The notes under the pieces were generated by a model that was given only the letters and a program-made list of their open reading frames with translations, had not been told where the DNA came from and searched no databases. A stretch of 64,000 nt of DNA from Candidatus Poribacteria bacterium (GTDB taxonomy: Bacteria; Poribacteria; WGA-4E; WGA-3G): assembly GCA_022824265.1 (NCBI GenBank), contig JAJEAG010000090.1:15573-79572 (forward strand). The letters are read 5' to 3'. The translations under genes and the position numbers were made by a program. Positions 4,969 through 37,433 of this stretch are shown piece by piece (the first letter of the stretch is position 1; the number at the start of each line of letters is the position of its first letter).

Positions 4969-6600
4969 CTAATGCATGTGGTCATCTAGATCCGCTTCAT
5001 CAGGAAATCCAGATGGTTCTTCAATCTCAGTAATCAGCGTTTCAGTGGTCAATAGCAATCCAGCTATACTACTTGCATTTTGTAGTGCTGATCTAACAAC
5101 CTTCGTAGGGTCAATAACTCCGTATTCCAACATATCACCGTATTCTTGGGTTGCAGCATTAAATCCGTAGTTTCCCTCGCCACTTTCAACATTAGATAGG
5201 ACAACTGCCCCTTCTAATCCAGCGTTTTCCGCAATCGCTCTGATAGGAGAACGTAATGCCTCTCGTACGATGTTTCTTCCAGTGTTTTGGTCCCCATCAA
5301 GTTCAAGTGTATCAAGTCCTGTGATAGCGCGTAAGAGTGTAGTACCTCCTCCTGCGACTATTCCTTCCTCTATAGCAGCTCGTGTTGCAGCAAGTGCGTC
5401 CTCACACCGTGCCTTTTTTTCTTTCATTTCAACTTCAGTAACAGCACCAACGTTAACCACAGCAACACCACCAGCGAGTTTAGCAAGTCTTTCTTCAAGT
5501 TTTTCACGGTCATATTCGGAGGTGGTATCTTCAATTTGTGTGCGAATCTGAGCGACTCTACCATCAATGCTCTCTTTTGATCCAAAACCACCAACAATAG
5601 TTGTAGTATCCTTATCAATCGTAACTCTTTGTGCAGTGCCTAACATACCGACTACAATGTTTTCTAATCGGATCCCAGTATCTTCAGAGATTACCTGACC
5701 AGCAGTTAAGACTGCAATATCTTCAAGCATTTCCTTGCGTCTATCACCGAATCCGGGTGCTTTTACCGCTGCAACTTGCATATTTGCCCGTAGTTTGTTG
5801 ACAACTAATGTAGAAAGAGCTTCCCCTTCTATATCTTCAGCAATTATCAACAAGGGACGGGATAGTTGCATCACTTTTTCTAATATCGGAACGAGGTCTG
5901 CAATACCAGTAATTTTTTCAGTGTTAATGAGAATGTATGGGTTTTCAAATTCGACGACCTGTGTTTCCGCATCAGTGACAAAGTGAGGTGATAAGAAACC
6001 TCTATCAAACTGCATTCCCTCAACAATATCAACGTTAGTTTCGGATGATTTACCCTCTTCAATTGTTATTGCACCATCGTTCCCAACTCTTTCGATTGCT
6101 TCAGCAATGATGGTCCCGATATTGCTATCGTTAGCAGGATCGTTAGCTGCTATTGAAGCGACATGAAGGATGTCTTCATGTGTATTCACGTCACGACTTT
6201 GTGCAGAAATTGCGTTAACAACAGCATCAACGGCTTTATCAATTCCAATTTTCAGCTGCATTGGGTCTGCCCCAGCAGTAACGTTTTTTAGCCCTTCATG
6301 CAGTATTTCTTGTCCTAACAAAGTAGCAGTTGTTGTTCCATCACCAGCGACATCATTAGTTTTGGTGGCAATGGATTCTAACAATTGTGCCCCCATATTC
6401 TCATAAGGATCTGGGAGTTCAATTTCTTTCGCGACGGTAACACCATCACATGTTACTATTGGTGCCCCAAATGACTTTTGAATAACTACATTTCGTCCTC
6501 GTGGTCCGAGTGTAACTTTTACAGCATTAGCGAGAGTATCTGCCCCACGTTTGAGAGCTACCCTCGCCTCTTCATCAAAGATAATCTGTTTAGCGGGCAT
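4969..6600 (-). CDS. groEL: Chaperonin GroEL (Cpn60)
   Basis: [42 protein letters not shown] and [12 protein letters not shown]. Confidence 0.98.
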
Positions 6601-7214: not shown

Positions 7215-7940
7215 CTATTGACTTGTTGACTGCTTCAGACTACCCCATGTGAGAGTGTATTTTTGAACAGGATGTACATCAAGTGAAGCATCACCTAAAG
7301 AAATCGCTGCAATAATAGGTACAGCACCTAATTCTAAAGAAATAGCATCTATTGAAACAATTTCTACGTTTGGATGTGGATTGTCCCATTTTGTGGTAAT
7401 CAATCCAGCTTTATTACAAGCTGGCTTTTCGTTTGCTGTCCATCCCCACACAGAATTATCATCCTCAAAATTTTTCTCAATATGACACCAATCATGGGAA
7501 TTAAAGTTTGTTATCATCTCAAGCTCTTCTGTCTTACCATTTTCATAGTTCATCACGAACTTGTAACTTGGTACACCAGCAGCTGACCAACCAGTTGCAT
7601 GGAAGAAGTAGATGGATTTTGCTACCCCTTCAACTGCAATGTCGTTTACAGCCTTGGGCCACCTTTGTGCGTTAGTGCCAAAGAGAACAACTCCACCATC
7701 AATTATCTGAAATTTCACCTTTTTATCAGGACCTTCAAATTCTGCAAATTTACCTATTGGTAGTAATGAATAAGTATTGTCACCCGCATTCAGTGTCCAC
7801 CATTGATGTCCAACCAGTTTAGTATTTGAGTAGGGTTCAAGGTCAACAGGGATAAATTCTTCTAATGCGAATGCTTGTCCAACTGAAAAAAGTGAGATTA
7901 AGGTAAGTACTGTGATAAGAAACAATTTAACAACTTTCAT
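7215..7940 (-). CDS. Secreted protein with a putative carbohydrate-binding-like beta-sandwich and a C-terminal VxxVxKx4WGxLK motif
   Basis: Signal peptide ending AFA; FIPVDL, SIYFFHATGW and WDNPHP..EIVSI; tail LDVHPVQKYTLTWGSLK. Confidence 0.75.
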   Translation of the reverse strand: MKVVKLFLITVLTLISLFSVGQAFALEEFIPVDLEPYSNTKLVGHQWWTLNAGDNTYSLLPIGKFAEFEGPDKKVKFQIIDGGVVLFGTNAQRWPKAVNDIAVEGVAKSIYFFHATGWSAAGVPSYKFVMNYENGKTEELEMITNFNSHDWCHIEKNFEDDNSVWGWTANEKPACNKAGLITTKWDNPHPNVEIVSIDAISLELGAVPIIAAISLGDASLDVHPVQKYTLTWGSLKQSTSQ

Positions 7941-8101
7941 TTTATTTCTCCAATTAAGTAAAATTTGCTTTTCAGTATAGACGTGAAAGAAAATACTGTC
8001 AATAAAATTCTGATAAAAAGAGAGGATAGACCGAATATGCTATTAATATCAGGATGTTGGTTCAGGGATAGAATTATTGTTGAATAGAGAAAAGGATAAA
8101 C

Positions 8102-9820
8102 TTACTTGTCTATTGAGTTTTTGGTAGACGGTACTGCTGGTTCTACATACAATGTCTTTTCGCGTGTGTAATGCACATATCCAGCAACGTTGCCTTTTCG
8201 TTTTACAACATATTTTGCCCATGTATAGTCTACTGGAACAAAACTTGAGTGATGTGCCTTACTGAAATATGCTGCCAGTTGGGCTGCTTGCAATAATGTA
8301 GGCATTGGGATGTCTGGTTTATTTTCAGGATTACGTATGATGACATGTGATCCATGTATTTGCTTTGCATGGAGCCACATATCGCGTGGTTTGGCTATCT
8401 GACGTAACAGCAGATCGTTAGATTCACTATTCCGACCTACATACATGTGAAATCCGTTTTTTGAGATATATTTACGGAAAGGACCCTCATTTATATCTTG
8501 TTGTTTCTTGTTCTTATGTTGCGTTTTCAGATACCCATTTTCAACAAACTCTGTACTAAGTTTTTGAAGGGACTCAAGTGTATCAGAAGATTCTAACTTA
8601 ATTTCATATCTACTGAGGATTTTCTGTTCTGCTTCAAGAGCAGCAATAAGTTGTTGTATCTGAGAGAAACCCCGTTTTGCTTTAGTGTACTTCTTGAAAT
8701 ACGATTGCGCATTGTCAGAAGGAGTTAATTCAGGATTAAGCGAGATTGTCAAGGTATCAAGTTCTGGACTATAATAGTTTTGAAGTTCAACCTGTTTTTG
8801 TCCACGAGTAATGTTATGGAGGTTTGCAAGTAATAGTTCACCATTGATACGGTAATCTTCAGCTTTTTCAGCACTTTCTAAATCCTTTTGTAGTTCTCTC
8901 TCTTTTCGCGTAAGTAACTTTTTCTGTTTTGCCAATGCCTGTTTGAGTTTGTGTTTTTCTGATGCTACGTTTTCTTTCAGTGTAATAGCATCGTAAAATT
9001 CTGTTAACGCTTCACTCATAGTATCATAAGAGTTAGAGACAGAATCAGGAAATTGTTCTAATGGCATAGGTGATGCGGTTAACGGTTCATTTCCATCCAT
9101 AAGTACTTGCGGTGCAGGGTTATCCTTGTCAAAATAAGCGATTACTTGTTGATACGCTTCCCAAAGTTCTGATTTATCTTTACGGGCAATTATTTCCTTA
9201 GCAATCATTGGACTCAGCCCATCTATTCTACTAAATAGTGATTTCCACGTCATTTCTGGTGACGAGAATAGTTCAGTAAAGGTTGTCTGGTCCAAAGTTA
9301 ATGGATCAATCTTGTCCTGTTGTGGTGGTAAATCATAAGTTTCACCAGGTAGGACTTCACGATATCGACTCATTGTATCATCAATATGTTTCCAGCATTC
9401 TAAGATTCTGTTATCAGTATCGTCAATCAGAATGATATTACTGTGTCTTCCCATAAATTCAGCAATTACGGCTTTACACGAAGGTTTAACTGGTTCATCG
9501 GATACCGGTTGAATAGTAACTTTTAGTATACGATCCCAACCGATCTGTTCTATGTCAATGATTTTACCATGTTTCAGGTGGGTTGCAAGAAAATCAGCAA
9601 AATAGGATTGCTTTTGTCCGGGATGTGGTTTTTGTGTAAGGTGTGCTCGAGCATGAACCGAATGCGCGGATATCGTAAGCCAATGTGGCTGTGTGCCTTG
9701 ATCAATCTTGAAGTTAAAAGTGCTTGGATTTGCTTGTTCAATATGACGAATTGTACCGCCAATAAGTAAATGGGACATCTCGTCCGTAACATGATGAAGT
9801 GTTAAACTATCAAAAGACAT
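8102..9820 (-). CDS. rqcH: Ribosome quality-control protein RqcH (Rqc2/FbpA, NFACT family)
   Basis: MSFDSL start, WDRIL, EFMGRHSNIIL, NAQSYFKKYTKAKR, VGRNSESND and DMWLHAKQIHGSHVII. Confidence 0.9.
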   Translation of the reverse strand: MSFDSLTLHHVTDEMSHLLIGGTIRHIEQANPSTFNFKIDQGTQPHWLTISAHSVHARAHLTQKPHPGQKQSYFADFLATHLKHGKIIDIEQIGWDRILKVTIQPVSDEPVKPSCKAVIAEFMGRHSNIILIDDTDNRILECWKHIDDTMSRYREVLPGETYDLPPQQDKIDPLTLDQTTFTELFSSPEMTWKSLFSRIDGLSPMIAKEIIARKDKSELWEAYQQVIAYFDKDNPAPQVLMDGNEPLTASPMPLEQFPDSVSNSYDTMSEALTEFYDAITLKENVASEKHKLKQALAKQKKLLTRKERELQKDLESAEKAEDYRINGELLLANLHNITRGQKQVELQNYYSPELDTLTISLNPELTPSDNAQSYFKKYTKAKRGFSQIQQLIAALEAEQKILSRYEIKLESSDTLESLQKLSTEFVENGYLKTQHKNKKQQDINEGPFRKYISKNGFHMYVGRNSESNDLLLRQIAKPRDMWLHAKQIHGSHVIIRNPENKPDIPMPTLLQAAQLAAYFSKAHHSSFVPVDYTWAKYVVKRKGNVAGYVHYTREKTLYVEPAVPSTKNSIDK

Positions 9821-9888
9821 GGGTTACCCAAATAGGTAGTTTCAATTTCAATTGAAGTACCACTAAACATACAGCCATCAGTTTGTCA

Positions 9889-10839
9889 TTAATGATATTG
9901 TTTCAAGTTACTCGTAATGCTGCGTAGTTGTTTTTGAATATCAGGAGGGACACGTGGATTGAATGGACCCCCTGTGCCCGCTTCAATATCCTCAAAATCG
10001 CTCAAAATCATCGCTTCCACGACAGCAGAATAGTTGTATACTCTTCCATTCCAAAAACGTATTTCTTCAAGTGGGGTTATATCAGCTTCAATTCTGGCAG
10101 AAGTTTCATAATCTCCACGCCGTTGTGCGTTATTAATTTCATCAGAAGCACGAGCAAAAGCAACTGCAATACCAGATGTATGTCCCTTTGTACCGAGTTG
10201 TGCAGGACGTGTGCATCTGTCACCAATTCCCCACATCACTATACCAGAATCCCCAATACCTTCAATGAGTGGACTGACATCATCTTCATCTGTTCCGATT
10301 TTCACGCCAATGAAATGTGGTGAATCTTTCAACAATCGGATAACTGCATCTAAGTCTCGCTTTTGCCTAAAATAGTAGAGAAATCTTGCATTACAAGAAC
10401 TACCGTAATGTTCTGCGAATTTCATAAAATGTTCGTAGATACCTTCCGGACTACTAATACCAGTCAATGGCATCAACAGATATGCATCAGGTGGTCTATT
10501 AAGTTCAGATTGTGCTTCAATAAGTTGTCCGGCTTGGTTGATAGGATTAGGCACGATTCCTGATATTAAGATACCGTCGGAGCCCATCTGTTGTCCTGTT
10601 TTATCTATCAATCGTAGTTGCTGTGTTTCAGATATATGGTGAATTAAACTTGTTCCTGCAATTGCAATAACCCTTTTGCGTCCCTCATCAAGGTAATTGT
10701 TTTTCATCAAATAGTCTATGTTCTTTGCATGTCCAACATAATCAATCTTGTTTTCTTTAAATGGTATCACAGGAATTGCAGTTACAGAATTGAGAGCATC
10801 TATGAGTTGTGGTAATTCAAATAGCATAGGTAACTCCAA
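9889..10839 (-). CDS. Dihydrodipicolinate synthase family aldolase/dehydratase (likely start ATG 10827)
   Basis: AIPVIPF, LYY and IGVKIG (candidate Schiff-base Lys); GGAG RBS before ATG 10827. Confidence 0.75.
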   Translation of the reverse strand: MELPMLFELPQLIDALNSVTAIPVIPFKENKIDYVGHAKNIDYLMKNNYLDEGRKRVIAIAGTSLIHHISETQQLRLIDKTGQQMGSDGILISGIVPNPINQAGQLIEAQSELNRPPDAYLLMPLTGISSPEGIYEHFMKFAEHYGSSCNARFLYYFRQKRDLDAVIRLLKDSPHFIGVKIGTDEDDVSPLIEGIGDSGIVMWGIGDRCTRPAQLGTKGHTSGIAVAFARASDEINNAQRRGDYETSARIEADITPLEEIRFWNGRVYNYSAVVEAMILSDFEDIEAGTGGPFNPRVPPDIQKQLRSITSNLKQYH

Positions 10840-10840
10840 A

Positions 10841-11638
10841 TTAAAAATGTTTTCTTAGAACCAACGCACTTTTTACCGATCCAGATGTGACATCTGTCTG
10901 CACATCTATCTCAAAACCATTTAACGTTTTTTGTCTTTGATTCCAACGTTTGGTAGTAATACGTGCTTCTACTGCACTAATGATATGGTTTAATATGACC
11001 AAACCTAACATTGTGCGTGCTGTTTGAAATGTGTCGTTAGCCTTTTGACGCAGATCGAACGCTTCCAAACGATATTTTGAATCAAACTCAATTTCGGTGT
11101 CTTTTTCATCTTTCAATGATGGGTCAAGATCTTTCCAATACCACTTACCTGTACGGTTTCGTGTTGCTTCAGAATCATAGACGTGGTTCCAATTTTCATA
11201 TTGTGTAGCGTGTTCAAAATCTTCTACGAGATCCCATTTATCAAAAGAAGCAGGTCCTATAAAGATAATGTTTTGTCTGACCACCTCGCGGTAATCATCA
11301 CGTGTATTTACTGCATTATTTCGTAGGATAAAATAAGTGACAAATAAACCTATCTCTGCTGCAGTATATAGGTATCCATGCTTCGCACCTGTATACAGTT
11401 GTCCCATACCTGGAATTGCCAGTGAATAAAGAAATGCTTCATTAGGTGATTTGCGATTGATGAGTCTAATTTCTGGATTGGTAGAAACAGCAGTTTGTTT
11501 AGCGACTTCTCGGATACCAAGGTTGGATTCTAAATAGAAATTTGTCAGCATAGTTGTGTGTGAGTCACTGGAAGCTAAGCAAATATGGGATGTTATGCTG
11601 AGAATGATTAGTATTATGATTATTGGGGTTCGTTTCAC
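10841..11638 (-). CDS. Exported hypothetical protein (DUF5683-like) with C-terminal Phe
   Basis: Signal peptide; KSP.EAFLYSLAIPGMGQLYTG motif; ends ALVLRKHF. It lies directly downstream of the PorV-like gene. Confidence 0.7.
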   Translation of the reverse strand: MKRTPIIIILIILSITSHICLASSDSHTTMLTNFYLESNLGIREVAKQTAVSTNPEIRLINRKSPNEAFLYSLAIPGMGQLYTGAKHGYLYTAAEIGLFVTYFILRNNAVNTRDDYREVVRQNIIFIGPASFDKWDLVEDFEHATQYENWNHVYDSEATRNRTGKWYWKDLDPSLKDEKDTEIEFDSKYRLEAFDLRQKANDTFQTARTMLGLVILNHIISAVEARITTKRWNQRQKTLNGFEIDVQTDVTSGSVKSALVLRKHF

Positions 11639-11665
11639 TTGTTAACTAATTCCTAATTTGAAAAA

Positions 11666-12784
11666 CTAAAATACGATTATACCTGTCATCTCAATTAGTC
11701 TCTCTTGTAATGGTCCAAATCGTGGACCGTATGTCAAATCTAAATTAAATAAATATATTTTTACGCCAATTCCGTAGGTAATGTAATCAGCGAAGTCAGG
11801 TAAATTAATTCCGGGTTCAGATTTGTATCCAACCCTTAATGCCAGTGTATTACCAAGCCAGTATTCCAAACCGAGATTTTTTTGTAAATGTCGCCATTCA
11901 AATGCTCGGTAGCCAACGCCTCTTTCAGATAAAAGCTGCTCTCTTGTAAGCATGTCTGCTTCCGATCTTTCAGCATTAAGCCTTTCCAAATCAACATCTA
12001 ATTCTGTTTCATCTTCTCTCAATTTATCAATATATGCTGAAATCCCAGTTACAAACCGAAGGTGGTTATATCTATCCTGATACAGGCTCATTGAAGTCCC
12101 AATCCTAAGCATACGTGGTAATGGGTCTGCTTGGTTTTCATCAATAAATGAGATACCCGGACCGACGTTCTGTATCGCTAAACCGATAGTAGTCGGTATC
12201 GGTCTAAATGGAAGTAAATACTGAATTCCCATATCAACCGCATAAGAAGATCCGCTCTCCCTACCTAATACCATACGTATCATCTTTGCATTGATACCTG
12301 CTGCTAATGAACTTGTGAGAGTATCTGCATAAGATAAAGTTAACGCCATATTCGTCCCAAGACTTTCTTCACGAAGTACATCAGGAGAATCACTGGTAAC
12401 GGCAATTGTTCCCTGCCCGTTCAGTTGCAGAGTTGCACCAACAGTGCCTATCTCTCCGAGTGGTAATGCTCCAGAAATGAAGGTATAATATAATCCTTCT
12501 CCTGCTTCTCCAAATGGACCACTGTAATCCGTGTAAAACATAGATGCTTGAGCACCCATTTTACCGGATCGTATTCTGCTTTCTGGCATCTGTGCTAAAC
12601 CACTTGGATTCCAAAGAGATGCAGTTACATCTCCAGACATAGCAGAAAATGCATCTCCTAATGCTCTGGCTCGAGCACCACCACCTAAACTTAATATTTG
12701 TGCGCCTGTCCTACCCGGACCCGCCAACACTGTTGATGGTATAATGAAAACTATCAATAATAATGTAGTGACATATCTAAACAT
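11666..12784 (-). CDS. PorV/PorQ-family (UPF0164) outer-membrane beta-barrel protein
   Basis: Signal peptide; GAQILSLGGGARARALGDAFSA, SLWNPSGLA, AVDMG, GLAIQNVGP, DPLP and LALRVGY; C-terminal Phe. Confidence 0.85.
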   Translation of the reverse strand: MFRYVTTLLLIVFIIPSTVLAGPGRTGAQILSLGGGARARALGDAFSAMSGDVTASLWNPSGLAQMPESRIRSGKMGAQASMFYTDYSGPFGEAGEGLYYTFISGALPLGEIGTVGATLQLNGQGTIAVTSDSPDVLREESLGTNMALTLSYADTLTSSLAAGINAKMIRMVLGRESGSSYAVDMGIQYLLPFRPIPTTIGLAIQNVGPGISFIDENQADPLPRMLRIGTSMSLYQDRYNHLRFVTGISAYIDKLREDETELDVDLERLNAERSEADMLTREQLLSERGVGYRAFEWRHLQKNLGLEYWLGNTLALRVGYKSEPGINLPDFADYITYGIGVKIYLFNLDLTYGPRFGPLQERLIEMTGIIVF

Positions 12785-13052
12785 AAAAAAAGCACGACTA
12801 TCTTCGTAGATATTAAGGTAATGTCTACAAGAATAGTACCTCCGTATATCGTTGATTTAATGGAATTATAAATGTATTAGAATATATCTATAAACGTCTA
12901 TCATACTATTTCGGTTTACATTTATTGAAGTTACTATAGATATGATGCAACTAATGCATAAGACAATTATATTACATTTATATAGAGAATATCAACCAGA
13001 TATATAGCCAAGATATATTACGAGTCATCACGTCAAACAGTTTTTCTTTTAG

Positions 13053-13081
13053 TTGACACTTACAGGTAGATATGTTAATAT
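13053..13081 (+). promoter_or_regulatory. Sigma70-type promoter for the lnt-prfB operon
   Basis: TTGACA-N17-TAATAT with an extended TG. It overlaps the track start at 13072, so lnt probably starts downstream (GTG 13105 or TTG 13117). Confidence 0.5.
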
Positions 13082-14721
13082 GTTTCAATAATCATTACCT
13101 ACCTGTGGAAAACATTTTGAATACAATTAAACGACACCGTTATCTGTTTGCTTTAAGTTCAGGCGTAATCTTATTTTGTAGTTTTCCCAGTGTTAATTTC
13201 TTCCCTCTTGCATGGTTTGGATTAGTTCCGTTGTTACTAACACTGCAATCCGTTGATCGTTGGAAAACTGCATTCAGCCTTGGATATGTAGCAGGATTCC
13301 TGTTTTTCGCGGGTTTATTGTTAGCAATAGCATTATTATATCCTTATGCGAATATTTTTACAACAGTTTTGGGATATTTGCTGTTAGTAGGATATACAGC
13401 ACTCTACTTTGCAGTAGCAGCAGTATTAGTATATCATTTGCCGTGGCAGTCAGGGATACTATATCCTTTGGGAGTAGCAACTATATGGGTGGGTTTAGAA
13501 TGGGTGCGTAGTTGGCTACTCACAGGATTCCCATGGGGTAACATCGGTTATTCTCAATGGAATTACCAACCCAGTATTCAAATAGCATCCTTTGCTGGCG
13601 TATATGGCGTAAGTTTTGTTATCGTCTTTTTCAATGCGGGGATTGCAGCCTTTATTCGCAGCAGACATGAATGGAGAAAGGAATTTGTTACTGTTCTTGT
13701 TCCTTGTCTACTGGCAGGGATAACTCTCATTTACGGATATGTCATTATCAATAATGATAAAGACAACCAGACAGAAACTATCAAAGTTGCCCTTGTACCA
13801 GGAAATATACCCCAAATTGAAAAATGGAAATCAGAAAATGTCGGAAAGATTGTAAAGAAATACCTCAATTTGACACAAAAAAGTGCAGTTGAAAACCCAG
13901 ATGTAATTGTCCTGCCTGAGACGACATTTAGAGGAGGAATGTTATCTGGTGAATGGGCAGTACAAGTGTCATTTCGCCAATGGACGAAATTTCATAACGT
14001 GTACAAACAGATGTTTGGAGAAAATGGCGGCATACCTATGCTTATCGGAGCAACGGACGTTGATACATTTGAAGATTTATACAATCGAGTTATTTCTGTA
14101 TCTTCCGAAGGAGAATTACTTGGGAAATACGCAAAAATGCGTCTGGTTCCGTTTGGTGAATATGTGCCTTTAGCAGACTTTCTTCCAAATTTTGTTCAAT
14201 TTCATCCTTTTGAAAATGGAAAGGAAATTAAATTATTACCAATAACAATTAATGAAAAAAACCAATCTCGCAGCCAGACCATAGAAGTAGGCACTTCAAT
14301 ATGCTTTGAGTCGTCTTTTCCAAACCATTTTCGTAGGTTTGTGAAAAATGGTGCTAATGTAATGGCAATACTTACCAACGATGCTTGGTTTGTTGGTACA
14401 GCCTTACCGGAACTTCATTTAGCAATGGCACCATTTCGTGCTGTTGAAAACCGAGTTGCAGTTTTTCGATGTGCAAATGGAGGATATACATGTGCTGTTG
14501 ATAAATTTGGACGTATCAGTACACCCTTTGTAACGCCACATACATCTGATGAGTTCTTAATTGCAAATGTGGCACTGTCAGATGGAGATCATACATTATA
14601 TACTCGTTATGGAGATTGGTTGCCAATTCTATGTGGTATACTTTGTTTAGCATTGATAATATATAAAATTTTAATACATTACTCAGTTATCAAGTCTGAT
14701 GACAGACAAATTGAAAGGTGA
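13072..14721 (+). CDS. lnt: Apolipoprotein N-acyltransferase
   Basis: EWVRSWLLTGFPWGNIGYSQ, LPET, YAKMRLVPFGEYVP, ICFES and TNDAWF (nitrilase E-K-C triad). Confidence 0.95.
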   Translation: MLICFNNHYLPVENILNTIKRHRYLFALSSGVILFCSFPSVNFFPLAWFGLVPLLLTLQSVDRWKTAFSLGYVAGFLFFAGLLLAIALLYPYANIFTTVLGYLLLVGYTALYFAVAAVLVYHLPWQSGILYPLGVATIWVGLEWVRSWLLTGFPWGNIGYSQWNYQPSIQIASFAGVYGVSFVIVFFNAGIAAFIRSRHEWRKEFVTVLVPCLLAGITLIYGYVIINNDKDNQTETIKVALVPGNIPQIEKWKSENVGKIVKKYLNLTQKSAVENPDVIVLPETTFRGGMLSGEWAVQVSFRQWTKFHNVYKQMFGENGGIPMLIGATDVDTFEDLYNRVISVSSEGELLGKYAKMRLVPFGEYVPLADFLPNFVQFHPFENGKEIKLLPITINEKNQSRSQTIEVGTSICFESSFPNHFRRFVKNGANVMAILTNDAWFVGTALPELHLAMAPFRAVENRVAVFRCANGGYTCAVDKFGRISTPFVTPHTSDEFLIANVALSDGDHTLYTRYGDWLPILCGILCLALIIYKILIHYSVIKSDDRQIER

Positions 14722-14724
14722 TAA

Positions 14725-15823
14725 ATGTTAACAGATATAAAAACAGATGTTGATTCAGTAATAACGCGACTAAATGAACTTAGGGGGTTTCTTTGACCTT
14801 GCTTCAAAACAGAAAGAATTAGAGGATCTGGAAAAAGAAGCGATGGCAACCGATTTTTGGGGGAATATACAGCGCGTACAGACTGTAAATCAACGTATTG
14901 CAGCCCTAAAAGATGAAATCGGTGAATATGAAAAGTTGAGGAGTTCGGTTGATGATATACAGACTCTCTTGGAACTTGCTATAGAGGAAGATGATACGAG
15001 TTTAGAATCGGAGATTCAGAATGGATTATCAACCATCGGTACACAGTTTGAGAAAATTGAACTCCGATTAATGTTGGATGGAGAGTTCGATGAGAACAAT
15101 GCAATCCTAAACATTCATCCTGGTGCAGGAGGTGTTGACGCACAAGATTGGGCAGGAATGCTAATGCGTATGTATCTCCGTTGGTGCGATCAACATAACT
15201 ATACAACTGAAATCGTTGACCTAACATCTGGTGATGAAGCTGGTATAAAAGGTGCAACTATTTTAGTGAAAGGTGTTTACGCTTATGGTTACCTAAAGGC
15301 AGAATCAGGTGTGCACCGTCTTGTCCGTCTGTCACCGTATGACTTTAACAATCGTCGACATACCTCTTTTGCTGCGGTGCACCTTACGCCTGAGATTGAT
15401 GACAACATAGAGGTGGAAATAAACACAGAAGACCTACGCATAGATACCTACCGAGCAAGTGGTGCTGGTGGACAACATGTCAACGTAACCGATTCCGCTG
15501 TTAGAATAACTCACATACCTACCAATATTATGGTACAGTGTCAGAATGAACGATCTCAACACAGAAACCGAGAAATTGCCATGAAAGTACTCCGTTCTCG
15601 ACTGTTCAACCATTTTCAAGCACAACGTGACGAAGAAATTGCGAAACTACAACCAGAAAGACGGAATATTGACTTCGGAAGTCAAATTCGATCTTATGTC
15701 CTTCATCCATATCAACGTGTTAAAGATACCCGAACAAATATAGAGACCGGTAATGTTGATGCTGTCCTAAACGGTGAAATTGATATGTTTATTGAGAGTT
15801 ATCTGAAAATCAAACCCACCTAA
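14725..15823 (+). CDS. prfB: Peptide chain release factor 2, translated through a programmed +1 frameshift
   Basis: ORF1 from ATG 14725 reads MLTDIKTDVDSVITRLNELRGFL then TGA; the +1 frame continues DLASKQK. GVHRLVRLSPY and GAGGQHVN (GGQ) are present. Confidence 0.97.
14782..14797 (+). promoter_or_regulatory. RF2 autoregulatory +1 frameshift site
   Basis: AGGGGG-TTT-CTT-TGA-C: an internal SD 3 nt before the CTT TGA C slippery site. Confidence 0.95.
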
Positions 15824-15854
15824 TAAGTGTTAGCCCACAGTATAGGAGTAACTC

Positions 15855-17246
15855 ATGAATATCTATAGAACTTTTCTGTATATATCAATCGTAATTTATT
15901 GTTTATGTGTAAATGCGATTCTATTTGCAGCGGTAGTTCAAGTGCCTTCAGATCAACCGACAATTCAATCAGGTATTGATGCTGTAAAAGACGGTGATAC
16001 GGTTATAGTTGCTGATGGAATCTATAGTGGTGAAGGTAATACTAACATAGATTTCAAGGGTAAACAAATTACCTTAAAATCACAGAATGGTCCAGAGACA
16101 ACTATAATCAACTGTCTATCCACACCAAATTCACGAGGATTTATTTTCCAAAATGAGGAATCTAATGATACTGTGTTAGAAGGCTTTACAATTAAGAATG
16201 GAAATAATAGTGATGGTGGTGGAATCTTATGTGATGTTTCGTCACCGACGATAAAGAATTGTATTATAACTGATAACAGCGGTGGAGGAATATTCTGTAT
16301 TGTTTCTGAGGCTAAAATAATTGACTGTCAGATTACAAACAACCGAGATGGCAATGGTATCCTGATTTTAGAACCGGATACGAGGAATGGTGAGGTAATA
16401 GAAAAACCTATTAGTGGACCGAGTCTAATCAATTGTGATATATCTGAAAATAAAGGACATGGAATTTATTGTTTGCTTCATGCATCCGCAACAATAATAA
16501 AAAGCACAGTCTCTCAAAACATTGGTCGAGGTATTTTTTGTAACTCTTTTTCAGGTGCAAAAATTACGAATTGTATAATCTCACAGAACTTGGACGGCGG
16601 TGTTGAATGCAGGGAATATTCAGGAATGACAATTACTGATTCGATTATCAAACAGAATACTGCGAAAAATGGTGGTGGTATCTCCATCAGTCCTACATCA
16701 AGACTGAATGCTATTGGCTGTGTTATCGCAGAAAATATAGCAACAGAATCTGGTGGTGGTATTGATTCTATTTCTACCTTTGGACATGTAAACATATCAT
16801 ATTGTACAATTACAAGAAACTCAGCGAATAATAGAGGTGGAGGGGTGCATGCTCTTCTTGAAGGTTCAACCTTCAAATGCACTAAATCTATTATTTGGGA
16901 CAATACATCAAATGGTACACACGCAGAATTTTTCGGATCTGGTCCAACAGTTCGTATTATTTCATGTGTTTTACGAGGCGGACTTGATAGTTTCGGAGAA
17001 CAATGGGCTAAGTCTATTGTTTATAAAGATAGTATTGATGAAGACCCACTGTTCGTAAATGCTGAGAATGGGAATTATACACTTAAACGTGCAAGTCCGG
17101 CAATAGAAATGGGAGCAACCGCATCCCGTGAAGAAGAGAATCAAGAAGCAAATGATCAAGGAGAAGAGAATTTTATTGAGGAATCTCTTAGTGTGTCCTC
17201 TGTAGGGAAACGAATAATTAAATGGGCAGACCTGAAGCGTAACTAA
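15855..17246 (+). CDS. Secreted right-handed parallel beta-helix repeat protein, paralog 1
   Basis: Signal peptide; VPSDQPTIQSGID, repeated GGGI and NCII units, DPLFV; tail LSVSSVGKRIIKWADLK. Confidence 0.85.
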   Translation: MNIYRTFLYISIVIYCLCVNAILFAAVVQVPSDQPTIQSGIDAVKDGDTVIVADGIYSGEGNTNIDFKGKQITLKSQNGPETTIINCLSTPNSRGFIFQNEESNDTVLEGFTIKNGNNSDGGGILCDVSSPTIKNCIITDNSGGGIFCIVSEAKIIDCQITNNRDGNGILILEPDTRNGEVIEKPISGPSLINCDISENKGHGIYCLLHASATIIKSTVSQNIGRGIFCNSFSGAKITNCIISQNLDGGVECREYSGMTITDSIIKQNTAKNGGGISISPTSRLNAIGCVIAENIATESGGGIDSISTFGHVNISYCTITRNSANNRGGGVHALLEGSTFKCTKSIIWDNTSNGTHAEFFGSGPTVRIISCVLRGGLDSFGEQWAKSIVYKDSIDEDPLFVNAENGNYTLKRASPAIEMGATASREEENQEANDQGEENFIEESLSVSSVGKRIIKWADLKRN

Positions 17247-17273
17247 ATAGTGGCGTAAGATTAGGAGGATTAC

Positions 17274-18659
17274 ATGAACATTAATAGATTTTGTGTCCAC
17301 ATCTTTATCTATATAATTTTGCTTTGTGTGAATATCTCAACCTATGCTGTAACAATCAATGTCCCTGTTGATCAACCAACGATTCAGGCGGGTATTGACG
17401 CTGCACAAAACGGTGATACAGTTTTAGTTGCTAATGGAATATACAAAGGTGAAGGAAATGTAAACATTGACTTTAAAGGCAAACAAATTACAGTTAAGTC
17501 AGAGAATGGTCCAGAAGCAACAATCATCAACTGTTTGTGGACCCCAAATACACGTGGTTTCACCTTCCAAAATGAAGAGACACATGCCTCAGTATTAGAT
17601 GGATTTACTATAAAAAATGGTAGAAATTTGAATGGTGGTGGGATTTACTGCAATCATGCCTCCCCAACAATTAAGAATTGTGTCATTGCTTGGAACAAAG
17701 CACTTAGGGACGAAAGTGGTACAGGACGTGGTGGTGGAATTTATTGTTTCAATTCTGAGGGAATAATAATTGATTCTACTATCTCACACAATATAGCGGA
17801 ATACACTTATGGCGGTGGTGTTTATTTTGATGGAAATAATGTGGAAACAGATGGATTTTTAAGAGAAACGTATTTTCAACCGCAACTAATCAATTGTATT
17901 ATTTCAGAGAATACTGGAAGTGGAGTCCATATACTGGACTACGTAAAAACAGAAATAATAGACACCAAGATATTGCATAACAGTTTACGCGGTATTGTTT
18001 GTTCATTTTTTGCAGGTAGTACATACATTACAAATTGTGAAATTGTCCAAAACACTGGGGGTGGTTTGGAAGTAGGTGAGTATTCCAGACTAAAGATCGA
18101 AAATTCATACATCAGACAAAATACCGCTGAATATGGTGGAGGTATTTTCTGTAGTCCATCAGGAATAATTGAAGTCTCTAACTGTATTATAGCTGAAAAC
18201 ATAGCCACGAGGGCGGGTGGTGGAATTGATGTCGGTGAGTCTAAGCATGGATACGCAGAAATTACTCATTGCACAATCACGCGGAATACCGCAGGCGAGA
18301 GTGGTGGAGGTATATATGTTTATACTCATACCTCTTTTAAGTTAATTAATTCAATTGTCTGGGGTAATAAATCGGATGACAGAAATCCGGAGGTATATAT
18401 TTCTGGTAGAGGTATCGTATTTAAATCAAACACTATTAGGGATGGACTCGATCGTATTGGTCAAGAACCTGATGGAAATTTGTTTGTTTATGAGGACAAC
18501 ATTGATAAGGATCCGCTTTTTAGAGATCCTGACAGAGGAGACTATAGACTTAGGGGAAATAGTCCAGCATTAGGTATGGGACCACAAACTTCGGTTGGAG
18601 GTGCTCTAAGTGTTGTACCTGTTGGGAAACGGTTGTTAAGATGGGCTGATTTAAAATAA
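17274..18659 (+). CDS. Secreted right-handed parallel beta-helix repeat protein, paralog 2
   Basis: Same architecture; AGGAGG RBS; tail LSVVPVGKRLLRWADLK. Confidence 0.85.
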   Translation: MNINRFCVHIFIYIILLCVNISTYAVTINVPVDQPTIQAGIDAAQNGDTVLVANGIYKGEGNVNIDFKGKQITVKSENGPEATIINCLWTPNTRGFTFQNEETHASVLDGFTIKNGRNLNGGGIYCNHASPTIKNCVIAWNKALRDESGTGRGGGIYCFNSEGIIIDSTISHNIAEYTYGGGVYFDGNNVETDGFLRETYFQPQLINCIISENTGSGVHILDYVKTEIIDTKILHNSLRGIVCSFFAGSTYITNCEIVQNTGGGLEVGEYSRLKIENSYIRQNTAEYGGGIFCSPSGIIEVSNCIIAENIATRAGGGIDVGESKHGYAEITHCTITRNTAGESGGGIYVYTHTSFKLINSIVWGNKSDDRNPEVYISGRGIVFKSNTIRDGLDRIGQEPDGNLFVYEDNIDKDPLFRDPDRGDYRLRGNSPALGMGPQTSVGGALSVVPVGKRLLRWADLK

Positions 18660-18686
18660 AAATAAACAATAAAATGTGAGAAATTC

Positions 18687-20087
18687 ATGAAAATCTATAA
18701 GTTTCTTGTATATATTACTGTTTTATTTTTATTGCTCTTTGTTAATATCACATCCAATGCTGAAGTATTTCATATTCCCGCAGATAAACCAACAATTCAA
18801 GCAGGTATTGATGTAGCAAAAGATGGGGATACTGTTTTAGTCGCTAATGGAGTATACAAAGGTGAAGGAAACGTCAATATAGATTTCAAAGGTAAAAACA
18901 TTACCGTTAAGTCACAGAATGGTCCTGAAGCCACAACAGTCCACTGTTTATCTGAACCGAATACCCGTGGGTTTATCTTCCAGAATGGAGAAACCAACGA
19001 TGCTGTGTTAGATGGATTTACAATAAGATATGGCATCCATGATAATGGTGGAGGAATATACTGTAATAATGGATCACCGACGATTAAAAATTGTGTAATA
19101 GAATGGAACAGAACTGTTAAAACCGACAATGTTAATGGCCGAGGTGGTGGAATTTATTGTTTTAATTCTGATGCGAAGATAATCGATTCTATAATCTCAC
19201 ACAATAGTGCAGAATCTGCTTATGGCGGCGGTGTCTACTTTGATGGGGACTCTATTATAGACGGTGTTTTCGTACGTGAGACCGTCAGTGAACCTTCCCT
19301 TCTGCGTTGTACTATTTCTGACAATACTGGCAGTGGAGTTCATGTCCACTCCTTTGTACTACCCCAATTAAAAAATTCCAAAATATTACATAATAGTTGG
19401 GGTGGCATAGTATGTGCTTTTTTTAACACAAACGGAACAAACATTACACATTGCGAAATTGCACAAAACACTGGTGCTGGTGTTTCAGCGCGGGAGTATT
19501 CTATCCTGAACATCACTGATTCTATCATTAAGCAAAATATTGCCAAAGAGGGTGGCGGGATAAACTGCGGTCCAACAGCATCGATTTATGTCTCGGAATG
19601 TGTTATCACAGAAAATATAGCAACGAAGTTTGGTGGTGGAATCAACATCGATTCAACCAGAGGTGAAGCAAAAATCTCATATTGTACAATTACTCAGAAT
19701 ACAGCAAGTGAGAAAGGTGGCGGAATTTATGTTTGGAGTCAAACCTCTTTTTCATTAACTAACTCAATTGTATGGGGTAATAACACTGAAGTCAGTCATG
19801 ACGATGCTTTTATTCAACAAGATTTGTTTGCCAATATTACCGTCATAAATTGCTGCATTAAAAATAGAATTCAAGACATAGCATTAATATTTCAATGGGA
19901 TATAGCAAATATTCAAGGAAACATCCATGAAGATCCACTTTTTGTTGATGCTGAAGGTGGTGACTATAGACTTAAACCTGACAGTCCTGCTTTAGCAATG
20001 GGTGCGTATTCGACATTTGACGAAATTGTAAGTGTCACTTCAGTTGGGAAAAAGGTTGTTTTGTGGGCAGAACTGAAACAAAATTAA
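18687..20087 (+). CDS. Secreted right-handed parallel beta-helix repeat protein, paralog 3
   Basis: Same architecture; tail VSVTSVGKKVVLWAELK. Confidence 0.85.
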   Translation: MKIYKFLVYITVLFLLLFVNITSNAEVFHIPADKPTIQAGIDVAKDGDTVLVANGVYKGEGNVNIDFKGKNITVKSQNGPEATTVHCLSEPNTRGFIFQNGETNDAVLDGFTIRYGIHDNGGGIYCNNGSPTIKNCVIEWNRTVKTDNVNGRGGGIYCFNSDAKIIDSIISHNSAESAYGGGVYFDGDSIIDGVFVRETVSEPSLLRCTISDNTGSGVHVHSFVLPQLKNSKILHNSWGGIVCAFFNTNGTNITHCEIAQNTGAGVSAREYSILNITDSIIKQNIAKEGGGINCGPTASIYVSECVITENIATKFGGGINIDSTRGEAKISYCTITQNTASEKGGGIYVWSQTSFSLTNSIVWGNNTEVSHDDAFIQQDLFANITVINCCIKNRIQDIALIFQWDIANIQGNIHEDPLFVDAEGGDYRLKPDSPALAMGAYSTFDEIVSVTSVGKKVVLWAELKQN

Positions 20088-34981: not shown

Positions 34982-35875
34982 CTACAGAATCTCACGGGTA
35001 AAGGTATACAAACCCCTTAACCAAGACCCATAATAGATGCCATTCGCATAACAGAAATATAGCACTTTCAATGCAACAACACATATCAAGCAAAGGGACA
35101 GTACCGCAATCAAACCATAGTCTAACCTACCCATCTGTGATGACCGCAGAGATGTCCTTTGCATCGAAGTCTCTGGAGAGAATCCTCTACTCTCCACCGA
35201 TTCTCCGAGGTTTGTCGCATGTCGTATATTTCCTGCTAAGATAGGACGAAAACTATTGATGACACCCCGCACAGATGCAAACAGATTGAACCGTAGATAA
35301 CGAAACCCTCTTAATCTCTGTGAACGTATTACAGCAGCAGCTTCAGAGGCAATCACGGGTATAAAGTGTAAAGCAGTTGTCACCATAAATGCAAGTGCAC
35401 CCGGCACACGCAATTGTGACAAAGCAAGAAGTAGGTCGCGCGGTTGTGTGCTCCACACAATATAACAACCGATAACAAGCGTAGAATTGAACCTTAATGA
35501 TTGAATAATCCCGTGAAACAACCCCTCACGATACACATGAATACCACCTGTCCACTTACCGATGAGAGGAAAATCTATAGGGACGAGTGTAATCAATACC
35601 GTGCGAGGAAATGCATTATAGAATATGCCTTGACTGTAAATGAGTCCCCAAGTGGTAAAGAAAAGGAAGATCAACAGTAATCGAATTTGCTTTAGAGTAG
35701 GTATAGATGAGGCAACGAGTAGGAGGCTTGCCAGAAAACAGACTAACAACGCAGATGGACTGTCCAGCAAAATAACAAGACAGCCGATTATCATCATGAT
35801 GAGTATTTTAGTTCTGGATTCCAGTTTAGATTTACATATAAACATTTTGATTATACACTTTTTTAGAAGATCCAA
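34982..35875 (-). CDS. ECF transporter transmembrane T component (likely start ATG 35845)
   Basis: Coupling-helix motifs SQRLRG and VESRGF; downstream of a fused ECF ATPase. Confidence 0.85.
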   Translation of the reverse strand: MDLLKKCIIKMFICKSKLESRTKILIMMIIGCLVILLDSPSALLVCFLASLLLVASSIPTLKQIRLLLIFLFFTTWGLIYSQGIFYNAFPRTVLITLVPIDFPLIGKWTGGIHVYREGLFHGIIQSLRFNSTLVIGCYIVWSTQPRDLLLALSQLRVPGALAFMVTTALHFIPVIASEAAAVIRSQRLRGFRYLRFNLFASVRGVINSFRPILAGNIRHATNLGESVESRGFSPETSMQRTSLRSSQMGRLDYGLIAVLSLCLICVVALKVLYFCYANGIYYGSWLRGLYTFTREIL

Positions 35876-35890
35876 GAAACGTTCAATATC

Positions 35891-37411: not shown

Positions 37412-37433
37412 GATAACATAGAAATGTCAAATG

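Follow-up and report, generated by a model that had tools for sequence, protein, structure and literature searches.

Why should exported proteins with unrelated folds end in the same short peptide? The question is raised by a 64-kb stretch of DNA from a Candidatus Poribacteria bacterium (called the window here, at its full length), where four proteins do so. LPXTG, PEP-CTERM, GlyGly-CTERM, and the T9SS CTD were each short C-terminal tags, and each led to a dedicated sorting machine. The four tails in the window are instances of one linear peptide tag, strictly C-terminal, that occurs throughout the phylum. Searches of the literature found no description of the tag as such.

Tails of four exported proteins

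The original prediction had drawn attention to four signal-peptide proteins ending in a 17-residue motif, and both the peptides and their positions were right (Table 1). Its two unrelated folds were likewise borne out; three carriers are beta-helix paralogues matched by PF13229, and the fourth is modelled as a beta-sandwich. No further tag carrier was found in the whole 64-kb window. Because the three beta-helix carriers are paralogues, their common tail could, taken alone, be paralogy.

Table 1. Tag carriers, their tags, and the PorV-like gene pair, by position in the window
Feature	Position	Strand	Remarks
Tag carrier, 241 aa	7215..7940	(-)	signal peptide, CBM-like beta-sandwich body, disordered tail (modelled); tail model 22.5 bits
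Tag of 241-aa carrier, LDVHPVQKYTLTWGSLK	7233-7283	(-)	then QSTSQ, stop
DUF5683 protein, 265 aa, Phe-terminated	10841..11638	(-)	PF18935 26.9 bits, cut-off 26.7
PorV/PorQ-family outer-membrane barrel, 372 aa, Phe-terminated	11666..12784	(-)	NF033709 188.4 bits, cut-off 90
Tag carrier, 463 aa	15855..17246	(+)	right-handed beta-helix, PF13229 E 1.7e-22; tail model 12.1 bits
Variant tag of 463-aa carrier, LSVSSVGKRIIKWADLK	17187-17237	(+)	then RN, stop
Tag carrier, 461 aa	17274..18659	(+)	beta-helix paralogue, PF13229 E 3.4e-22; tail model 15.9 bits
Variant tag of 461-aa carrier, LSVVPVGKRLLRWADLK	18606-18656	(+)	stop directly after final K
Tag carrier, 466 aa	18687..20087	(+)	beta-helix paralogue, PF13229 E 2.1e-16; tail model 9.2 bits
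Variant tag of 466-aa carrier, VSVTSVGKKVVLWAELK	20028-20078	(+)	then QN, stop

The beta-helix carriers are the weakest scorers with a model built on the tail, the 466-aa protein being the weakest carrier that the model retained. Their tails are a family-specific variant, GK[RKQ]xxxW[AG]x[LI]K with a KR-rich end, which is kept in 31 of 33 homologous beta-helix ORFs from 24 loci. The family occurs, in tandem arrays, in 26 of 61 phylum genomes, and in 21 of 23 within its own genus.

The 241-aa carrier is matched by no Pfam model (E<=0.01) and no NCBIfam model (E<=0.1), nor does any model in these collections match the tail in the four window carriers. Every organism name given for its 50 homologues is Candidatus Poribacteria. 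Aligned in 19 sequences with identities down to 42%, its K227, W232, and K236 are invariant. The tag is under purifying selection, as these three residues hold to that depth and each of the 121 phylum genomes sampled has it.

A C-terminal tag across the genome

The tag has the consensus V-[ED]-P-x-G-K-L-T-T-T-W-G-x-[IL]-K, after which come about three residues that are polar or basic. In the 4.45-Mb genome, with its 28,073 stop-to-stop ORFs, the core motif [KR]x4W[AGS]x[LIVM][KR] gave 143 matches, of which 133 lie within 12 residues of the C-terminus, versus a mean of 3.1 and a maximum of 6 in 20 within-ORF shuffles. Away from the C-terminus, the motif was seen 10 times, against 18.2 expected; reversed sequences hold it four times. 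Genuine internal copies number only three, and each of these directly precedes a CTD. The tag is, in short, always either terminal or placed directly before a cleavable-type T9SS CTD. Past its final K come 0-14 residues (mode 3; 2-4 in 102 of the 133 carriers), rich in R, K, S, and Q.

A signal-peptide-like start is found, by a crude hydrophobicity test, in 131 of 136 carriers. The five exceptions are a borderline case, an ORF running off a contig end, a 56-aa fragment, an 89-aa ORF that is likely a chance match, and a 276-aa ORF on C87 whose start does not resemble a signal peptide. Only one carrier of the 136 has a lipobox-like start. Poribacteria append the tag to more than 100 Sec-exported proteins per genome. 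In this phylum of sponge symbionts, which is dominant and uncultivated, roughly 3-4% of the genes are marked in this way. The original prediction had expected a proteome scan to return many matches, all C-terminal and all on Sec signal-peptide proteins; it had seen none on lipoproteins or cytoplasmic proteins, and had treated internal copies as evidence against itself. These expectations hold genome-wide, to within the few exceptions just listed.

The bodies that carry the tag sort into 29 clusters, and their Pfam matches above cut-off come from at least 12 families, although 63 of the 133 bodies belong to a single LamG cluster. Small proteins of lectin-like, CBM-like, propeller, or beta-helix type predominate. 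The tag is portable, being found on folds that are not related.

It is also modelled as disordered and outside the folded body. In an AlphaFold2 model of the 241-aa carrier, the body has pLDDT values of 84-95, while residues 222-241 are at about 41, which speaks against the tail being a structural cap. The same program, applied to a segment having both tag and CTD, places the tag within a stretch of pLDDT below 50 and gives the CTD about 90. Foldseek compared the model of the 241-aa carrier best with AziU3/U2 (E 9.3e-6, TM 0.48-0.58), and then with CBMs. With 29 body clusters and no hydrophobic segment in the tail, the description of a short, non-transmembrane, C-terminal motif on unrelated folds stands.

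The beta-signal of outer-membrane beta-barrels was considered as well. This is a terminal aromatic residue that closes an amphipathic last strand. It was rejected for the tag; the last residues of carriers are polar or basic, and the bodies have soluble folds, whereas the PorV-like and DUF5683 proteins end in F.

The tag, T9SS parts, and dockerins

The original prediction had pointed to a PorV-like gene and a co-directional, Phe-terminated neighbor in the window. Both are there as described, the neighbor being a DUF5683 protein. The PorV-like gene stays below both equivalog cut-offs (PorV model NF033710, 100.5 bits versus 250; PorQ, 70 versus 220). Of 61 phylum genomes, 60 have a single orthologous copy of it, at 40-96% identity, and DUF5683 adjoins it as downstream partner at 11 of 12 loci from distant phylum families.

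A tag carrier, on the other hand, lies within about 5 kb of this orthologue at just two of 12 distant loci. Of the PorV-family ORFs in this genome, 3/13 have a carrier no more than three genes away, versus a 14% background (binomial p=0.27). The proposed link between the tag and the adjacent PorV-like gene is therefore not supported. The gene is a conserved neighbor of housekeeping genes, not a specific partner of the tag.

T9SS parts are nevertheless to be found elsewhere in the genome. Type-A CTDs (TIGR04183 / PF18962) match 35 ORF ends. These same models give no match on the four window carriers (Pfam E<=0.01; NCBIfam E<=0.1). The genome also holds a SprA-like ORF of 2155 aa, a PorU-like ORF of 2164 aa, and about 12 PorV-family ORFs; the SprA and PorU matches in G000 lie below curated cut-offs. 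GldM and GldL were searched for and not found, neither search having a positive control. CTDs in Poribacteria have been noted before, reportedly without structural genes being found (Kamke et al., 2014; PMC3909097), and the SprA-like, PorU-like, and PorV-family genes seen here make the question that it left testable.

Three of the 35 type-A CTD proteins have the tag immediately N-terminal of the CTD, an architecture that recurs across the phylum. Thus, the part of the original prediction that invoked a T9SS-related route keeps some footing in these proteins, in the 35 CTD matches, and in the SprA- and PorU-like ORFs, while its argument from the PorV neighborhood finds no support. Where tag and CTD stand on one protein, the conserved block "LLQN-FPNPF" of the CTD begins three residues past the final K of the tag. 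Removal of the CTD would leave such a protein with about the same end as a tag-only protein; this match at three residues is suggestive only.

Dockerins enter at the same place. FG-GAP/ASPIC and WD40 proteins occur in both body-tag-CTD and body-dockerin-CTD forms (the latter in 2/6 sampled), and, among 20 homologues of carriers that lack the tag themselves, six have a dockerin-like module plus CTD at the end, as judged crudely by regular expression only. The argument is one from architecture, and it suggests that tag and dockerin occupy an equivalent slot between body and CTD.

FG-GAP/ASPIC is, separately, the one non-carrier family enriched beside carriers, 8 of its 11 members being adjacent (p=7e-9). 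This adjacency is kept in only one of eight loci in distant genomes, so that the family yields no partner for the tag.

The tag is also found outside the phylum. A second lineage, known from four genomes of 1.9-3.1 Mb (one record is labelled Pseudomonadota), has 3-14 tag matches per genome; in three of the four, every match is on contig C1. Here, no match to PorV, SprA, or the peptidase part of PorU was found in any of the four. Zincin-ankyrin proteins of this lineage carry either the tag or the poribacterial dockerin-CTD cassette, and paralogues within one such family, one ending in the tag and the other in dockerin plus CTD, are 54% identical over 339 aa. PF00404 matches CTD proteins in this lineage, as it does in the genome containing the window. 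Several of the zincin-ankyrin proteins have lipobox-like signal peptides, and at least one other body family is labelled.

The original prediction had proposed to profile the motif against PorV, SprA, PorU, and Omp85 paralogs, and had counted a tag that does not co-occur with any export component as evidence against itself. In Poribacteria, the tag does co-occur with PorV-, SprA-, and PorU-like genes; the four genomes, in which no such match was found, come close to that refuting case. Read at face value, they suggest that the tag may work in a lineage without T9SS parts of its own.

What may read the tag

We consider it somewhat under an even chance (about 45%) that the tag is a portable address, or docking handle, read by a putative receptor in the envelope or on the surface. 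Here, a putative component of the poribacterial envelope or surface would bind the free tag peptide in trans, and otherwise soluble exported proteins would thereby be placed or retained at the cell surface. The tag would do for its carriers the job that the dockerin (+CTD) cassette does on large surface proteins in these bacteria. Where a CTD comes after the tag, a T9SS-like route would take the protein across the outer membrane.

For tag-only proteins, a GspD-type secretin would be an available route across the outer membrane. GspD scores above cut-off in 13 of 13 genomes from the phylum and in six of six relatives of the second-lineage genome G121, and it also occurs in the two tag-less relatives examined, so that this argument is permissive only. 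GlyGly-CTERM reportedly marks T2SS substrates that are kept on the cell surface (bioRxiv 10.64898/2026.02.05.703148). As in that T2SS-linked case, both lineages that bear the tag have a GspD-type secretin.

The closest model for such docking is the type I dockerin (PF00404), known from cellulosomes and from the poribacterial dockerin-CTD cassette. Like the tag, it is a portable C-terminal module of secreted proteins having many folds, and the tag is found in its body-CTD slot in homologous families. Non-covalent docking in trans, as between dockerin and cohesin, is what we infer for the tag. Unlike dockerin, the tag has no Ca-binding repeats, is about a quarter as long, and has a receptor that is only putative; PF00404 matches none of the tag carriers. 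Docking does not fully explain the strict C-terminal position, of course, because a peptide that only docks could equally well stand inside a protein.

Because the tag lacks a transmembrane part, a folded domain, and a linked enzyme gene, whatever reads it is likely to represent a kind that has yet to be described. The tag covers most of the small lectin-like and "eukaryote-like" exported proteins of Poribacteria, and therefore probably defines how these bacteria dress their surface. At 17 residues, the peptide is short enough to be synthesized and used as a probe.

A doubtful extension of the docking handle makes the tag, together with the dockerin-CTD cassette, an inter-species address label. 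Proteins of the second lineage would then be delivered onto Poribacteria cells, or sorted within them, by the receptor or machinery of the host cell. Were this true, the second lineage would be a bacterial epibiont, parasite, or predator of the sponge symbiont, and the receptor of the tag would be usable in trans. Mimicry of this kind would make the second lineage a handle both for finding the receptor and for a bacterium-bacterium association inside sponges.

The original prediction had thought of a T9SS-related or new outer-membrane export route. In its T9SS form, the tag would be a minimal secretion signal, where SprA-like, PorV-family, or PorU-like machinery recognizes it in the periplasm and drives export, the tag being a drastically shortened equivalent of the type-A CTD. 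This we hold to be unlikely, though several points fit. Like the type-A CTD of Bacteroidota, the tag sits at the extreme C-terminus of Sec signal-peptide proteins with many folds, in dozens of copies per genome, and ends in a basic region; CTD cargo and SprA-, PorU-, and PorV-like genes do occur in the tag-bearing genomes of Poribacteria. The CTD-ending paralogues of the T9SS-less lineage, where tag and CTD alternate within one family, fit sorting in the periplasm at least as well as docking. Shorter functional CTDs are known in Prevotella intermedia (PMC11969387).

The tag, however, lacks the spacing of B and D motifs that even those short CTDs are described as having (PMC11969387). Its 17-20 residues compare with about 70-90 in a CTD; no CTD model matches it, and its predicted structure is disordered where the CTD is a folded Ig-like sandwich. 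It can precede a CTD in one protein, a conserved architecture in which, on three proteins, a second export signal would be redundant. The PorV-family genes that are not enriched near carriers, the GldM and GldL that those uncontrolled searches failed to find, and the tag-bearing genomes without PorV, SprA, or PorU matches count against it as well.

It is less likely still that the tag is a signal for processing or covalent attachment. By analogy with known systems, a peptidase or transpeptidase, PorU-like (C25, gingipain-type) or other, might cut at or after the near-invariant final Lys and join the protein to an acceptor such as lipopolysaccharide, a glycan, or peptidoglycan; alternatively, the attachment might be made at an invariant lysine. 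The positions that are invariant or nearly so are indeed two lysines and a tryptophan, what follows the last K is short, variable, and dispensable-looking, and this genome has a PorU-like ORF. In tag+CTD proteins, moreover, the flexible linker just ahead of the CTD contains the tag, and it is at this linker that cleavage and attachment of T9SS cargo reportedly take place in Porphyromonas and Prevotella (PMC4560394; PMC11969387). Against this, the second lineage has no match to the PorU peptidase.

The sortase-type systems, GlyGly-CTERM/rhombosortase, PEP-CTERM/exosortase, and LPXTG/sortase, resemble the tag in putting a short C-terminal peptide on many unrelated exported proteins. Those tags, however, combine their motif with a transmembrane helix, a basic tail, and a dedicated membrane protease. 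The tag has no helix; its core is followed by mostly polar residues (0-5 in the window), and no dedicated enzyme gene is linked to it.

We give little credence to a host-directed motif, where a sponge component would read the tag, although this would explain its presence in two unrelated sponge-associated lineages. Sponge metagenome runs are among those containing DNA of the window (three of 16 runs hold at least half of its words), the record of a second-lineage contig (G121) names a MAG, and carriers include domain types that Kamke et al. (PMC3909097) describe as eukaryote-like in Poribacteria. The slot of the tag is, however, common to dockerin and CTD, which are bacterial surface modules.

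Finally, that the tag has no function of its own, and is owed to chance, left over from paralogy, or the closing strand (structural cap) of its carrier domains, is hardly credible, whatever the three paralogues among the four window proteins and the large LamG cluster may seem to suggest; it is already contradicted by the C-terminal count relative to shuffles and by the spread of body clusters and Pfam families, and it fits neither a tail modelled outside the folded body nor conservation across the phylum and in the second lineage.

A conserved tail on exported proteins of many kinds

The tag is a portable, disordered and conserved peptide on Sec-exported proteins, where it is either terminal or directly followed by a type-A C-terminal domain of type IX secretion (T9SS; the domain, TIGR04183 / PF18962, is called CTD here). 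Its consensus is V-[ED]-P-x-G-K-L-T-T-T-W-G-x-[IL]-K. The motif was scanned for in the Candidatus Poribacteria genome that holds the window on its contig C19 (G000; 4.45 Mb, 100 contigs, 96.7% complete), among 28,073 stop-to-stop open reading frames (ORFs) of at least 50 aa. There, the core [KR]x4W[AGS]x[LIVM][KR] occurs 143 times, and 133 of these occurrences lie no more than 12 residues from the C-terminal end. Twenty within-ORF shuffles placed a mean of 3.1 and a maximum of 6 at that end; away from it, 10 occurrences were observed against a shuffled mean of 18.2. Reversed ORF sequences gave 4 core matches. Two to four residues follow the final K in 102 of the 133 carriers (proteins ending in the tag), three being the mode.

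The original prediction started from four such tails in the window, on signal-peptide proteins of two unrelated folds. When the sequence was re-read, all four tails were where they had been placed (see the table). The statement about folds is also correct, because three of the carriers are paralogous right-handed beta-helix proteins (Pfam PF13229), while the fourth, of 241 aa, is a beta-sandwich in its AlphaFold2 model. No Pfam or NCBIfam family matched this 241-aa protein; the solved structures closest to its model are AziU3/U2 (E 9.3e-6, TM about 0.5), followed by carbohydrate-binding modules. Within the window alone, of course, portability amounts to one protein against three paralogues.

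The genome as a whole offers far more bodies. Once signal peptide and tail are trimmed off, blastp groups 133 carrier bodies into 29 clusters, the biggest having 63 members. Pfam scans of 28 cluster representatives (15 matched, 13 unmatched) and of the window proteins found twelve families over cut-off: Laminin_G_3, 3keto-disac_hyd, PD40, Ldl_recept_b, CBM9_1, DUF4960, CBM_4_9, NPCBM, HmuY, LTD, Kelch and Beta_helix. Carriers have a median length of 263 aa, with 127 of 136 at or below 350 aa. As had been expected of Sec substrates, 131 of the 136 begin with a signal-peptide-like segment by a crude hydrophobicity test; a lipobox-like start was seen in one. A hidden Markov model built from the tails likewise behaved as foreseen, recovering 132 ORFs at i-E<=0.1, all with the match within 15 residues of the end. 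This profile was made from the same matches, and therefore demonstrates position rather than independent discovery.

Fifty orthologues of the 241-aa carrier were found, all those with an organism name being Candidatus Poribacteria, and the K, W and K of the tag are invariant among them down to 42% identity. A word search with the tail region in a set of 5.8 billion proteins yielded 10 orthologues of the query protein and nothing else, and so does not bear on distribution. The beta-helix tails score lowest of all carriers under the tail profile; they are a family variant, retained in 31 of 33 homologous ORFs. The beta-helix family itself is mostly confined to the genus of G000 (21/23 genomes) and is found in tandem arrays, the genome with the array in the table (G036) having 10 matches in total. 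In one metatranscriptomic library, contigs cover the carriers, yet they cover the whole region too, as does a DNA run of the same sample.

Features of the window, of its genome (G000) and of other genomes, with contig (C) and locus (L) handles
Feature	Location	Strand	Remark
Tag 1, 241-aa carrier	window 7233-7283	(-)	then 5 residues
Tag 2, beta-helix carrier	window 17187-17237	(+)	then 2 residues
Tag 3, beta-helix carrier	window 18606-18656	(+)	then 0 residues
Tag 4, beta-helix carrier	window 20028-20078	(+)	then 2 residues
Beta-helix carrier family	window 15855-20087		
Beta-helix tandem array	G036:C1 3925957-3937255		up to about 8 copies
PorV-like gene	window 11666-12784	(-)	
PorV/PorQ-family + DUF5683 module	window 10841-12784	(-)	L246-L256
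prfB ORF (release factor 2)	window 14774-15823	(+)	
GroEL match	window 4969-6600	(-)	
GroEL match	G000:C84 17280-18860		
Giant SprA-like and PorU-like ORFs	G000:C14 about 35300-39261; G000:C98 11971-17625		L041, L042; L043, L044
Tandem GspD-type secretin matches	G000:C92 33688-39606		one open frame
FG-GAP/ASPIC loci	G000:C3, C10, C45, C82, C85, C93, C94		L047-L053
Second-lineage locus L059	G121:C186 912-1940; 1965-3140	(-); (-)	
Second-lineage locus L177	484-1566	(+)	
Second-lineage locus L179	707-1882	(-)	
Second-lineage loci L268-L272			
Second-lineage locus L274	1489-3156	(-)	
Second-lineage locus L275	196-1776	(-)	

Occurrence in the phylum and in a second lineage

The tail profile matches all 121 genomes sampled from the Poribacteria phylum (8 families, 19 genera), with 15 to at least 72 matches in each. 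An exact degenerate-codon pattern for G-K-L-T-T-T-W-G-x-[I/L]-K, applied to one genome per prokaryote species, gave at least 119 stretches. Among the 80 matches listed, 76 are titled Poribacteria, 3 belong to an unclassified metagenome-assembled genome (MAG) and 1 to a MAG titled Pseudomonadota. With 88 tag matches, 29 PorV-family pieces and 74 CTDs, the unclassified MAG is of poribacterial type. Viral contigs held no stretch with one exact, and very narrow, 30-nt degenerate pattern of the tag.

In the Pseudomonadota-titled MAG (G121; 1.9 Mb), 4 contigs hold 5 tag matches between them. A search of 26 of its relatives found the tag in 4 genomes and in none of the other 22. This second lineage comprises G121, G123, G124 and G125, with 4, 13, 14 and 3 matches, respectively, at E<=0.001; G123-G125 are 2.2-3.1 Mb in size, with all their tag matches on contig C1. 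Among the proteins encoded next to the tag genes, identity to the G000 counterparts is 38% for Lon and 33% for the IscS-like one. GroEL identity was tried as a test of non-poribacterial origin and is uninformative, since the second lineage (58-60%) falls where deep branches of the Poribacteria do (58-63%). GroEL gave two matches in each of 13 sampled Poribacteria genomes (about 63% identical to each other in G000) and one in each of the six G121 relatives having any.

Signal peptides are present on the second-lineage carriers and are lipobox-like in several cases. One family among these carriers combines a zincin (HExxH) with ankyrin; at least one further body family has no Pfam match. Other zincin-ankyrin paralogues, two in G123 and one in G121, end instead in Dockerin_1 followed by a CTD of poribacterial type. 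Over 339 aa, a paralogue of this form is 54% identical to one that ends in the tag. The CTD forms are 47-59% identical to G000 proteins in their final 210-250 residues, and their bodies have no match in G000.

The four genomes gave no match to the PorV family (a control Poribacteria genome gave 16), none to SprA (the same model did detect the G000 ORF) and none to the peptidase part of PorU. GspD is over cut-off in all four. In G000 the motif occurs together with PorV-family genes and with SprA-like and PorU-like ORFs, the latter two under cut-off; the second lineage has the tag and no such matches. A GspD-type secretin is present in phylum genomes as well. In G000, two tandem matches to it lie inside one open frame of 2077 aa, which may be a fusion or read-through of two genes, because the corresponding frames elsewhere in the phylum are about 1000 aa each.

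The slot before the CTD, and what the tag may do

Type-A CTDs were matched 35 times in G000, each at the end of an ORF (401-2164 aa). According to Kamke et al. (2014; PMC3909097), CTDs occur in Poribacteria and the structural genes of the system were not found. Here, a SprA-like ORF of 2155 aa was detected in 5 pieces (best 65.6 bits), as was a PorU-like ORF of 2164 aa that bears its own CTD (298.6 bits over profile positions 6-742), both under cut-off. Profile searches, run without a positive control, gave no match to GldM or GldL; for GldK, 40 pieces matched, all in the FGE-sulfatase-type part only and none over cut-off. Poribacteria may run a T9SS-like system that lacks the known motor.

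Three of the 35 proteins with a CTD have the tag directly in front of it, and these are the tag's only genuine internal copies. The junction reads '...VEPNGKQFVTLGQIK-RNQ-LLQNFPNPF...' in two of them and '...VEPNDKQHITWGRIK-SAE-VFQNYPNPF...' in the other; the conserved CTD block begins three residues past the last K of the tag. The arrangement is widespread, the best 150 matches of a junction profile all spanning both elements. Their ORFs are either of FG-GAP/ASPIC type (about 615-660 aa) or of WD40-like type (745-820 aa) and come from three genera within the family of G000 and from one genus of a second family. To judge from these sequences, a tag-only protein would end where a tag+CTD protein ends once its CTD is removed. 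Packing of the tag on the CTD in cis was rejected: AlphaFold2, from a shallow alignment of 13 rows, models the CTD with confidence (about 90) and the tag as disordered (below 50), with no contact.

The dockerin shares this slot between body and CTD. Dockerin_1 holds it in 2 of 6 CTD proteins sampled, one with a WD40 body and one with FG-GAP/UnbV_ASPIC; both body types are found in the body-tag-CTD arrangement too. Among 20 homologues of carriers that lack the tag themselves, 6 have a dockerin-like segment plus CTD at their end, as judged by regular expression only.

The reading favoured here, at a probability of roughly 0.45, is that the tag is a docking or retention handle, because it occupies the dockerin's slot, can coexist with a CTD, and persists in genomes that lack T9SS parts but have a T2SS secretin. 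It would serve as an address label read in trans, possibly across species. The main rival, that it is a minimal export signal of T9SS type, is the better account of the strict terminal position and of the alternation between tag and CTD; it leaves the tag+CTD proteins and the T9SS-less lineage unexplained, and is judged unlikely. Less probable still is a processing or attachment signal, a reading based on the invariant lysines and on the place of the tag in the linker, where other T9SS cargo is cleaved (PMC11969387).

A C-terminal address tag is, of course, an already known kind of feature; a variant without membrane anchor, fold or linked enzyme is not known. Among the paper texts searched, none holds KLTTTWG, KLATTWG or TTTWGxIK, and none of the papers listed describes a poribacterial tag; supplementary tables (e.g. 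Kamke Tables S8 and S9) could hold lists of carriers. Among the papers listed, Poribacteria and a T9SS term come together in one comparative-genomics paper, as a single mention, and among those listed for tags, motifs or secretion signals Kamke et al. (2014) alone names Poribacteria.

Neighbours of the carriers

The original prediction linked the tag to the PorV-like gene by proximity and analogy, and this link is not supported. The gene is a PorV/PorQ-family member (188.4 bits, under both the PorV and PorQ equivalog cut-offs), one of about 13 family ORF pieces in G000, of which 5 are over the family cut-off. A carrier lies within three genes of only 3 of 13 PorV-family ORFs, against a background of 14% (p=0.27). 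For the window gene itself, a single-copy orthologue is present in 60 of 61 phylum genomes, and only 2 of 12 loci from distant families have a carrier within about 5 kb. What is kept, in 11 of those 12 loci, is a two-gene module with DUF5683, and this module is not tied to carriers. Within its own genus the gene is syntenic with lnt, prfB and the beta-helix array, which is the ordinary synteny of close relatives. A co-fold of the PorV-like protein (19-row alignment) with the tail of the 241-aa carrier (residues 212-241), run without controls, gave no verdict either way (score 0.00, mark 0.32).

Enrichment in gene neighbourhoods yielded no receptor for the tag; FG-GAP/UnbV_ASPIC was the sole family strongly enriched next to carriers, 8 of its 11 members in G000 adjoining one where the background is 181 of 3456 (p=7e-9). 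These CRTAC1-like genes (FG-GAP_3 x6 + UnbV_ASPIC) stand directly upstream of one to three co-directional carriers of differing body families. TPR and FGE-sulfatase-like genes are often beside these loci, their enrichment within three genes of carriers being weak (p 0.05 and 0.015, respectively). FG-GAP/UnbV_ASPIC was rejected as the receptor, as just one of the 8 homologous loci from two distant genomes has a carrier downstream, scored over 1.5-kb flanks with a strict regular expression. One member of the family itself bears tag and CTD, and the family is kept as a class of cargo.

The prfB ORF begins at what is presumably about the site of the programmed +1 frameshift of other bacteria, and its first approximately 25 codons probably lie upstream in another frame.
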